Shown here piece after piece: positions 28,111 to 30,974 of a stretch of DNA of 64,000 nucleotides. Below the pieces are notes generated by a model. The model did not search any database, had not been told where the DNA came from, and was given only the letters and a program-made list of their open reading frames with translations. The translations under genes and the position numbers were made by a program. The stretch is from Escherichia coli O157:H7 (lineage in GTDB: Bacteria; Pseudomonadota; Gammaproteobacteria; Enterobacterales; Enterobacteriaceae). The stretch is taken from assembly GCF_013167455.1 (NCBI RefSeq), contig NZ_CP038328.1. The stretch is one strand, 5' to 3'. The first letter of the stretch is position 1. Every line of letters starts with the position of its first letter.

Positions 28111-28337
28111 CTTGTATGAAATCGTCTCATGTACACGGTCCTTTTTTCGCCGAAAACTGATATTACTTTAATCAAAAGTTGACGTGCCAGATTCGAAGTA
28201 AATTTATAAAATATCAAATCAATATACATTTTGCACCTTCGAGATAGTAATAGCCATTACTGTAACATGAGTTACAAACAGCTTCATACCCAGAGCTACT
28301 GTAAGCGTACAGCGAGGGCCGTATTGACGGGGATGTG

Positions 28338-29876
28338 TTATTCAGCTGGCAGTGCTATGCGCCACGGAAGCAGTTCGCTGACCCGGTTGACCGGCCAGTC
28401 TGCTATGACGCCAAGCACATGGCGAAGGTAGCTTTCTGGATCCACGTCATTCAGTTTGCACGTCCCGATCAGGCTGTACAGTAGCGCTCCCCGCTCACCA
28501 CCATGATCAGAGCCGAAGAACAGGAAGTTTTTACGACCCAGACTGACCGCCCGCAGGGCATTTTCAGCGATGTTGTTGTCGATTTCCACCCAGCCATCGT
28601 TCGCATAGTACGTCAGTGCCGGCCACTGGTTAAGTGCGTACGCGAACGCCTTCGCCAACTCTGAGTGTCGCGACAGGGTCTTCATCTTTTCACGCAACCA
28701 GCTTTCCAGGGATTTCAACAACGGTTTCGTTTTTCGCTGACGTTCAGCAAGCCGCTGCTCTGCCGGCATTCCCCTTATATCCGCCTCTATGGCGTACAAC
28801 TGACCGATCTGCTCCAGGGCTTCTTCCGTCAGTGCTGACGGGATGCGGACGTGCACATCGTGGATCTTTCGGCGGGCATGAGCCCAGCAGGCAGCTTCCG
28901 TTATCCCACCATTGCGATACAGCTCGTTGAACCCGGCGTACGCATCCGCTTGCAGCACACCGCTGAAGCAGGCAAGATGAGTCTGCGGATGGATGCCTTT
29001 TCTGTCCGGGCTGTAAGCGAACCACACTGCAGGTGCCAACGCTGACCCTGCATTGCGGTCATCACGAACATACGCCCACAACCGCCCGGTCTTCGTCTTC
29101 TTATTACCCGGCAGCAGTACCTGGACCGGGGTATCATCGGCATGGAGTTTGCCGTCAGTCATGACATAGCCATGAAGCGCCTCTTCCAGCGGAGACAGCA
29201 GCCGGCAGCATGCATCCACCCAGCCCGACAGCAGTGAACGCCTCAGCTCCACACCTTGCCGGCCGTATATTTCTGACTGGCGATACAGCGGGGTGTGCTC
29301 TGCATACTTCGAGGTCAGCACGCGGGCCAGCAGCCCCGGTCCGGCGATACCCCGCTCGATGGGCCGCGAAGGTGCAGGTGCCTGCACGATGGCATCGCAC
29401 TGAGTACAGGCATGTTTTTCCCGTACCGTCCGGATAACCCGGAAGGCGCTACGCATCAACTCCAGCTGTTCGGCGGTATCCTCGCCCAGATAGCTCAGTG
29501 AACCGCCGCAGTTCGGGCAGCACGGCGCCGCAGGCAACAGTCGCTTTTCGTCACGGGGTAGTGATTCAGGGAACGGCTTACGGGTGCGGGTCTGACGCAA
29601 CGGACGCTGTACTGCCGGGTCATACACCCTACCAGTCAGCGTATCGCTCTCTTTCTGAAGCCGGTTCAGATCGGCTTCCATTTGTGCGATACGGCGGGAG
29701 ACTTTTTCGGAACGACTGCCGAAGTTCATCCGGCGGAGTTTATCCAGCTGCGCCTGCAGATGGTCTATTTCGCGCTCCCGGTTGCTCAGCTTTTCCTGCA
29801 GGGCGTGGATCAGCGCTTCCTGTTCGGCCAGGCGCTGTTTCAGCAGGAAGATGTCGTCAGAAGAGATGTCGTTCAT
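28338..29876 (-). CDS. IS66-family transposase TnpC
   Basis: 512 aa with coiled-coil N-terminus, zinc-finger-like CCPNCG...CTQC and DDE region. Confidence 0.88.
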
Positions 29877-29925
29877 AAGCCCGTATTTTACCGGGCTTAT
29901 TCTGTGACAACCAGGATAAAGAGAT

Positions 29926-30273
29926 TTACAGCATGGTCAGGGAGGTCAGCAGCCGCTTAGGCTGTCGCCAGTCGATACCTTCCAGCAGCATCGCCAGCTG
30001 CGCCTGCGTAAGGAACACTTTGCCATCACGGGCTGACGGCCAGGCGAAGCGCCCACGCTCCAGCCGTTTGGTCAGGAGGCACAGTCCGTCACCGGTGGAC
30101 CACAGCAGTTTAACCTGACTGCCGCTGCGGCCCCGGAAAATGAAAACATGGCCGGACATGGGATCGTCTTTCAGCGCCGTTTGTACTTTCGCAGCCAGGC
30201 CGTTGAAGCCATTTCTCATATCGGTGATACCGGCAACCAGCCAAATTTTGGTCCCGGAAGGTAACGGGATCAT
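29926..30273 (-). CDS. IS66-family accessory protein TnpB (OrfB)
   Basis: 115 aa [31 protein letters not shown]..., conserved IS66 Orf2. Confidence 0.88.
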
Positions 30274-30671
30274 CGCTTCAGTTCCTGTATCAGCAGAGTC
30301 AGGAGCTTTTCGCTGACATTGCCATTGAAGCGGAGCGTCCCGTGCCGGAACGTTACCTCACAGCTGATACTGAGGGTTTCCGGGTCCTCTGCGAGCGATT
30401 CTGGCTGTTCGGCAGCTGCATCGAGAGTCACAGGAAGTAGCTGGGGGCTCTCTGAAGAAGGTAATAGCAGCTTTCCCTCGCGCCATTGTTGTCGCCATTT
30501 GAACAACAGATTGGCGTTAATGCCATTTTCAAGAGCAAGTTTTGAGATGGATATCCCGGGTTCACAGGAGGCAGCAACGAGCTGCTGTTTAAATTCGGGA
30601 GGATAATTAGGGCAGCCTTTTCGCCTGCCGGGAGTCACATTTTTCTGCATATCTGATACTTTGGTTCCCAC
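30270..30671 (-). CDS. IS66-family accessory protein TnpA (OrfA)
   Basis: 133 aa, overlaps tnpB start. Confidence 0.8.
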   Translation of the reverse strand: MGTKVSDMQKNVTPGRRKGCPNYPPEFKQQLVAASCEPGISISKLALENGINANLLFKWRQQWREGKLLLPSSESPQLLPVTLDAAAEQPESLAEDPETLSISCEVTFRHGTLRFNGNVSEKLLTLLIQELKR

Positions 30672-30742
30672 TACTTATTTGGTGGGCACCACTTTGTCTA
30701 ATTCGTCAGATTCTGACCAGACGGTTCAGGCTGTACGCTTAC

Positions 30743-30974
30743 GAGCTACTGATGTATCAACACGATTCAACAATACCCGATATTTATTCCATGCCTCCAG
30801 CAACGATCTTTCTTCCTCCGTTGCGATTTCCAGATCTACAGCATCCTGCAGTGGCGCAATATACTCACTGAATTCCTGGATGTAGAACTGTGTGGTGACG
30901 GTCTTCCAGCCATTCGGCTCCTGCTGTATCGCAGCATACCAGGCTATTTCAATATCGCTATGCTGCGGCAGCAT
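30743..30974 (-). pseudogene. Tail fiber assembly (Tfa)-like gene fragment whose 3' end is disrupted by the IS66-family element
   Basis: ...[39 protein letters not shown] matches the C-terminal part of the intact tfa at 34530-35111; ORF then reads into the IS. Confidence 0.65.

Follow-up and report, generated by a model that had tools for sequence, protein, structure and literature searches.

An ISEc8 copy in a tfaX-like pseudogene remnant at the distal end of prophage Sp8 in Escherichia coli O157:H7

RESULTS

Gene content around the insertion

We analyzed a stretch of 64,000 nucleotides from an E. coli O157:H7 genome (contig NZ_CP038328.1; hereafter the window), in which a 2442 bp insertion sequence, ISEc8, occupies positions 28301-30742 with its genes on the minus strand. 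The gene order in this part of the window was stf, an intact tfa (34530-35111, minus strand), a Mn-catalase gene, two ferritin-like genes, a general-stress-protein gene, a ybcY-like SAM methyltransferase gene (31031-31699), a tfa remnant (30726-30974, minus strand), ISEc8, an alpha/beta-hydrolase gene (26551-28035), and ompT. ISEc8 was located 265 bp downstream of the stop codon of the convergent hydrolase gene, with a terminator-like hairpin (28056-28091) between them. ISEc8 did not disturb the short stretch from which the remnant and the methyltransferase gene diverge. Counts from promoter and terminator scans near the insertion did not exceed those expected from shuffling, and only the hairpin after the hydrolase gene was notable. 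The prophage at this locus is named Sp8 in the Sakai record. It corresponds to CP-933X, an equivalence on which no result here depends; a literature search on the Sp8/CP-933X naming found nothing, and a broader search of the IS66 literature yielded nothing of use.

At ~31900-34410, Sp8 carries the Mn-catalase gene, the two ferritin-like (yciE/yciF-like) genes, and the general-stress-protein (yciG-like) gene, and the prophage ends of O145 and ST95-32 are without this block. Because the related prophage end in ST95-32 adjoins the chromosomal yciGFE genes, capture of the yci-like block by imprecise excision is suggested.

Given IS629 together with an ISEc8-like element, an earlier note on this DNA had guessed at a STEC-like IS repertoire. 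This guess was borne out, as the window was 100% identical to O157:H7 genomes and contained two IS629-type copies. Positions 1-25000 were 100% identical to UK-lineage O157:H7 strains, such as strain 9000, and positions 28117-64000 differed from EDL933 at 14 sites. As 11 of these 14 differences were clustered within ~900 bp (55277-56180) in the prophage lysis/bor-ybcV region, the cluster points to a short patch of recombination between lambdoid prophages. The two IS629/IS3-family copies (768-2077, minus strand; 5796-7106, plus strand) were 95.6% identical to the IS1203 copy of EDL933. One of them splits ycgR, encoding the flagellar brake protein, and the other is inserted between dadX and cvrA, the latter annotated as a pseudogene that lacks its C-terminus. 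IS positions near the ISEc8 locus also differ in EDL933, which is without the dadX-cvrA copy and has IS1203 in a helix-turn-helix gene left of ompT that is intact in the window.

The element is a complete ISEc8

The three genes of the element were arranged in the order tnpA-tnpB-tnpC on the minus strand. The tnpA gene (30270-30650) encodes a 126 aa HTH_Tnp_1 accessory protein (PF01527, E=1.6e-12; PGAP product WP_001171554.1), and a longer ORF with a GTG start is available from 30671. The tnpB gene (29926-30273) encodes an IS66 Orf2-type accessory protein of 115 aa (PF05717, E=1.2e-38), and its start codon overlaps the tnpA stop codon in the sequence ATGA at 30273-30270. The tnpC gene (28338-29876) encodes the IS66 DDE transposase of 512 aa; the Pfam profile search matched PF03050 at E=2.1e-106 over profile positions 1-283 of 284, together with PF13005 (zf-IS66), PF13007 (LZ_Tnp_IS66), and PF13817 (the IS66 C-terminal element). 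The element thus has a DDE transposase, accessory genes in order, a tnpA/tnpB coupling overlap, GTAA inverted repeats, and an 8-bp duplication, as expected of the IS66 family.

All 2442 bp of positions 28301-30742 were 100% identical to copies that PGAP and the Sakai depositors call ISEc8, so that the earlier description as an IS66-family, ISEc8-like element could be narrowed to ISEc8. Identical copies are labeled "IS66-like element ISEc8" by RefSeq in many O157:H7 genomes, and the EDL933 copy was likewise 100% identical. Of 5426 complete E. coli genomes, 4229 contained ISEc8-like sequence and 3374 had full-length copies; there were 10-16 ISEc8 places per record. Every ORF and both ends of the window copy were intact, and identical copies were found at polymorphic O157 sites. 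Strain 9000 carries stx2a::ISEc8, and its Stx2a production is abolished (PMC6776261). Because of this insertion and an independent one in strain F3113, ISEc8 is evidently still mobile in the O157 lineage.

Element ends, target-site duplication, and reading frames

The element is flanked by GAGCTACT on the left (28293-28300) and on the right (30743-30750), the sole two plus-strand occurrences of this 8-mer in the window. The chance of identical 8-mers at two fixed boundaries is 4^-8, or ~1.5e-5. The 2442 bp between the two copies begin with GTAAGCGTACAGC and finish with its exact reverse complement, indicating perfect inverted repeats over 13 of 13 nt. Beyond 13 nt the terminal repeats, starting with GTAAGCG, become imperfect, with 82% complementarity over 22 nt. 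In an inverted-repeat search this 22-nt pair, GTAAGCGTACAGCGAGGGCCGT at the tnpC-proximal end (28301-28322) and its partner at the tnpA-proximal end (30721-30742), was the longest in the region and lay exactly at the proposed ends. Therefore, both the flanking direct repeats and the terminal inverted repeats of the earlier note stood on recheck.

An extra G after each 8-mer (28301 and 30751) makes the direct repeat readable as 9 bp. Three other ISEc8 copies had the same GTAAGCG...CGCTTAC ends and 8-bp duplications (AACGAAGC, AGCTGACC, and GCTGACTC, respectively), which fixes the boundaries at 28301 and 30742 with an 8-bp duplication. The latter two duplications, in F070 and KTa008, were located at positions 3500-3507/5950-5957 of each locus record, and the KTa008 copy was inside a phosphoethanolamine transferase gene.

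The minus-strand ORF on the right (30974 to 30726, 82 aa) matched PF02413 and entered ISEc8 by 17 nt, in line with the earlier reading of a Tfa-like frame that runs into the element; its last five codons (RKRTA) and stop codon come from the ISEc8 end. When ISEc8 and one 8-mer were removed in silico, an ORF of 101 aa was obtained, with the stop codon at 28219-28221 and the insertion point at codons 75-78. The displaced 3′ tail of this ORF (LGMKLFVTHVTVMAITISKVQNVY followed by the stop; 28219-28292, minus strand) is cut off from the rest by ISEc8 in the window and is contiguous with it in 493/89, O145, and 888 other genomes.

Empty and occupied sites

For the comparison with other genomes, window positions 27993-28300 were joined to 30751-31064, generating an excised junction of 622 nt. 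This junction was uninterrupted in 890 E. coli genomes, with identities of 100% in the O157 strains 493/89 and F3113 and 99.8% in LSU61 and PV15-279. The ORF with a different C-terminus, which the earlier note had expected from excision, is therefore found in nature. Because the junction is uninterrupted in these genomes, the flanks were adjacent and the 8-mer was single-copy before the insertion. With the empty-site genomes, coincidental 8-mers, recombination between copies of the IS, and an adjacent deletion caused by the IS are all ruled out, and a simple insertion that duplicated 8 bp is proven.

The occupied left junction was detected in about 295 genomes (296 counted, with at least one false join, F3113). 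F3113 was rejected as an occupied site, since its tfa site is empty and its ISEc8 is an independent copy in the methyltransferase gene. The site was occupied in typical O157:H7 (Sakai, EDL933, and UK strains) and empty in 493/89, LSU61, PV15-279, and F3113. The insertion is a stable lineage marker and could serve IS-based typing.

The independent ISEc8 of F3113 disrupts the ybcY-like methyltransferase gene ~530 bp away in the same orientation, and its 8-bp duplication AACGAAGC is at locus-record positions 4727-4734 and 7177-7184, equivalent to window ~31277-31284. The same gene of F3113 also contains IS1203. IS elements accumulate at this distal end of Sp8, which is rich in pseudogenes.

The target is a truncated counterpart of tfaX

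The remnant ORF matched Caudo_TAP (PF02413) at E=8.7e-18 over only profile positions 75-121 of 131 (47 positions), whereas the intact Tfa 3.6 kb away matched positions 1-131. Neither of two features of a functional Tfa was found in the remnant: the full-length domain was absent, and the ORF was not immediately downstream of a tail-fibre gene. It lies between the methyltransferase gene and the hydrolase gene, and the stf-tfa pair is 3.6 kb off. PGAP annotates the remnant as a pseudogene, "incomplete; missing N-terminus", in the uninterrupted empty-site genomes too. Because the Caudo_TAP match is partial and the pseudogene call is made without the IS, ISEc8 struck a pseudogene remnant and no working second tfa.

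The earlier note had taken the target for an already divergent tfa copy. One part of this view was right, as the ...SVALGMKLF... C-terminus is present in the 890 empty-site genomes and thus predates ISEc8. The other part needed revision, since the copy is not merely divergent but an N-terminally truncated remnant. The proposed comparison with DLP12 tfaX revealed a counterpart with 98% amino-acid identity, a DNA alignment, and a conserved gene order (ybcY-tfaX-...-ompT). Judged by these alignments, the target is the O157 counterpart of DLP12 tfaX, a predicted N-terminally truncated pseudogene remnant and not a working tfa.

Window 30751-31064, which spans the remnant and the beginning of the ybcY-like methyltransferase gene, was conserved in about 4300 of 5426 E. 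coli genomes (93-100% identity). This segment was located at the ends of different prophages at different chromosomal sites, namely DLP12 in K-12 and, in ST95-32, a prophage by an ompW fragment and the trp/yci genes. The remnant/ybcY unit is apparently a module with a wide distribution at the distal ends of lambdoid prophages.

Extent of tfa-derived sequence at the insertion site

Alignment of the tails beyond ...NRVDTS revealed a canonical type, TAPDIEWP..., in ST95-32 and the intact tfa, and other types, which were SVAPDIEW... in the K-12 tfaX DNA and SVALGMKLF..., followed by the hydrolase gene, in O157/O145. In many genomes, the match to the excised junction began only within the 8-mer, at query position ~302-307. 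The target 8-mer has 6 of 8 bases and the SVA codons in common with K-12 tfaX, and is thus tfa-derived. Left of the 8-mer, the similarity to tfa was 44-47% over 25-32 nt, borderline above chance, and 19 of 40 positions matched the intact tfa (binomial P~0.007, empirical 0.0016). The end of the tfa-derived sequence could be placed only to 0-40 nt left of the target. The idea that ISEc8 sits exactly on a recombination junction was dropped, because the 8-mer itself is tfa-derived and the boundary is defined only within these 0-40 nt. We treat the closeness of ISEc8 to the homology boundary as a coincidence.

DISCUSSION

According to the above results, we are nearly certain that a single ISEc8 transposition into the remnant of the tfaX counterpart at the distal end of Sp8 gave rise to this locus, that it is ancestral in typical O157:H7, and that it was most likely neutral. 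An ISEc8 copy transposed into the 3′ part of the tfaX-like remnant at the distal end of lambdoid prophage Sp8, and staggered target cleavage followed by gap repair would have duplicated the 8 bp GAGCTACT. The insertion may have taken place in the ancestor of typical O157:H7 after the 493/89, LSU61, and PV15-279 lineages split and been inherited since, an ancestry read from a few strain labels in match lists and not from a phylogeny. No functional gene is interrupted, the target was already truncated, and ISEc8 lies past the hairpin after the hydrolase gene; for these reasons, the insertion is most likely selectively neutral.

Had ISEc8 instead disabled a functional second tail-fibre-assembly gene, a phage-related phenotype would be expected. 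The Caudo_TAP match of the remnant is significant (E=8.7e-18), matches are conserved in 4303 of 5426 E. coli genomes, and the K-12 RefSeq record lists TfaX as a protein. However, the match covers less than half of the profile that the intact Tfa fills, no tail-fibre gene adjoins the remnant, PGAP calls it incomplete even in uninterrupted genomes, K-12 tfaX has an internal stop, and the canonical C-terminus (TAPDIEWP...) had been replaced before ISEc8 arrived, all of which make a disabled working gene very unlikely. A rearrangement is further from the data: recombination between ISEc8 copies, or a deletion caused by the IS next to itself, with the VALGMKLF... C-terminus as a by-product, could draw on the 10-16 ISEc8 places per genome record and on the high similarity to other tfa copies, which falls at or within the 8-bp target. 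But the 8-bp duplication matches on both flanks, joined together, the flanks give exactly the junction seen in 890 genomes without an IS there, and the VALGMKLF tail occurs in those same genomes, which already refute the rearrangement and leave it a negligible probability.

The simple insertion into the remnant could also have been guided. If ISEc8 prefers a local sequence or structure, for example, a GCT(G)AC-like target, its position where tfa homology decays would be no coincidence, and two other ISEc8 duplications, AGCTGACC in F070 and GCTGACTC in KTa008, do resemble GAGCTACT, and F3113 carries another, independent ISEc8 at a distance of about 530 bp. Nevertheless, the F070 and KTa008 sites were chosen via BLAST extension into the flank, which selects for resemblance, and we rejected the two duplications as evidence of a target preference. 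The F3113 duplication AACGAAGC is unlike GAGCTACT, AGCTGACC, and GCTGACTC, and pseudogene-rich prophage ends tolerate insertions, so that clustering can arise without targeting. A preference is accordingly improbable in our estimate. We give slightly less weight still to the broader proposition that the tfaX-like remnant is a working small protein, in which typical O157:H7 has 5 residues encoded by the IS in place of the 26-residue tail, or that an ISEc8 target preference explains both the two hits and the boundary position.

The preferred reading, a single neutral transposition into a remnant, is of little importance in itself, and the insertion opens no new question. Its parts can be set beside known systems. 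Compared with a lambda-type Tfa, the remnant lacks ~110 residues at its N-terminus and the final ~12 residues of the canonical C-terminus, and the segment that it has in common with the intact tfa of Sp8 is 121 nt at about 90% DNA identity. The K-12 counterpart is tfaX (b0563) of DLP12, in which 61 aa are annotated; the 98% amino-acid identity applies to these 61 aa. Both ORFs have the same start, diverge from ybcY in the same way, and have ompT beyond, and the K-12 gene order is tfaD, ybcY', tfaX, appY, ompT. In K-12, tfaX is ended by a premature stop (TGG to TGA) after ...SLLEA, with no IS there; its DNA retains the canonical ...SVAPDIEW tail and then appY, whereas the O157 type has ...SVALGMKLF... 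and then the alpha/beta-hydrolase gene.

Members of the IS66 family carry tnpA, tnpB, and tnpC between imperfect GTAA inverted repeats of ~20-30 bp and generate 8-bp duplications; the family was reportedly described by Han and colleagues in 2001. The window ISEc8 has the tnpA-tnpB-tnpC order and the family Pfam domains in common with IS66, IS679, and ISRm14, its inverted repeats and 8-bp duplication are alike, and no difference from the family was found.

The same copy is present in Sakai, where NC_002695.2 1656937-1659378 is annotated as the repeat_region "ISEc8 Family: IS66" of 2442 bp within "prophage Sp8; lambda-like phage". In Sakai, the 82-aa ORF overlapping the ISEc8 end is gene ECs_1657, a 249-nt "phage tail fiber assembly protein". 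Table S7 of a published study (PMC7430833) also lists this ISEc8 copy under Sp8, so the ISEc8 insertion in Sp8 is already known and annotated. The Sakai locus (ECs_1657-ECs_1660) agrees with the window in the insertion site, the three genes, and the 17-nt overlap with the 82-aa tfa ORF. Its neighbors are the same as well, with the hydrolase gene and ompT on one side and the methyltransferase gene, yciGFE-like genes, and catalase gene on the other. The feature itself is no different between the two genomes, and the window represents another O157:H7 sublineage.
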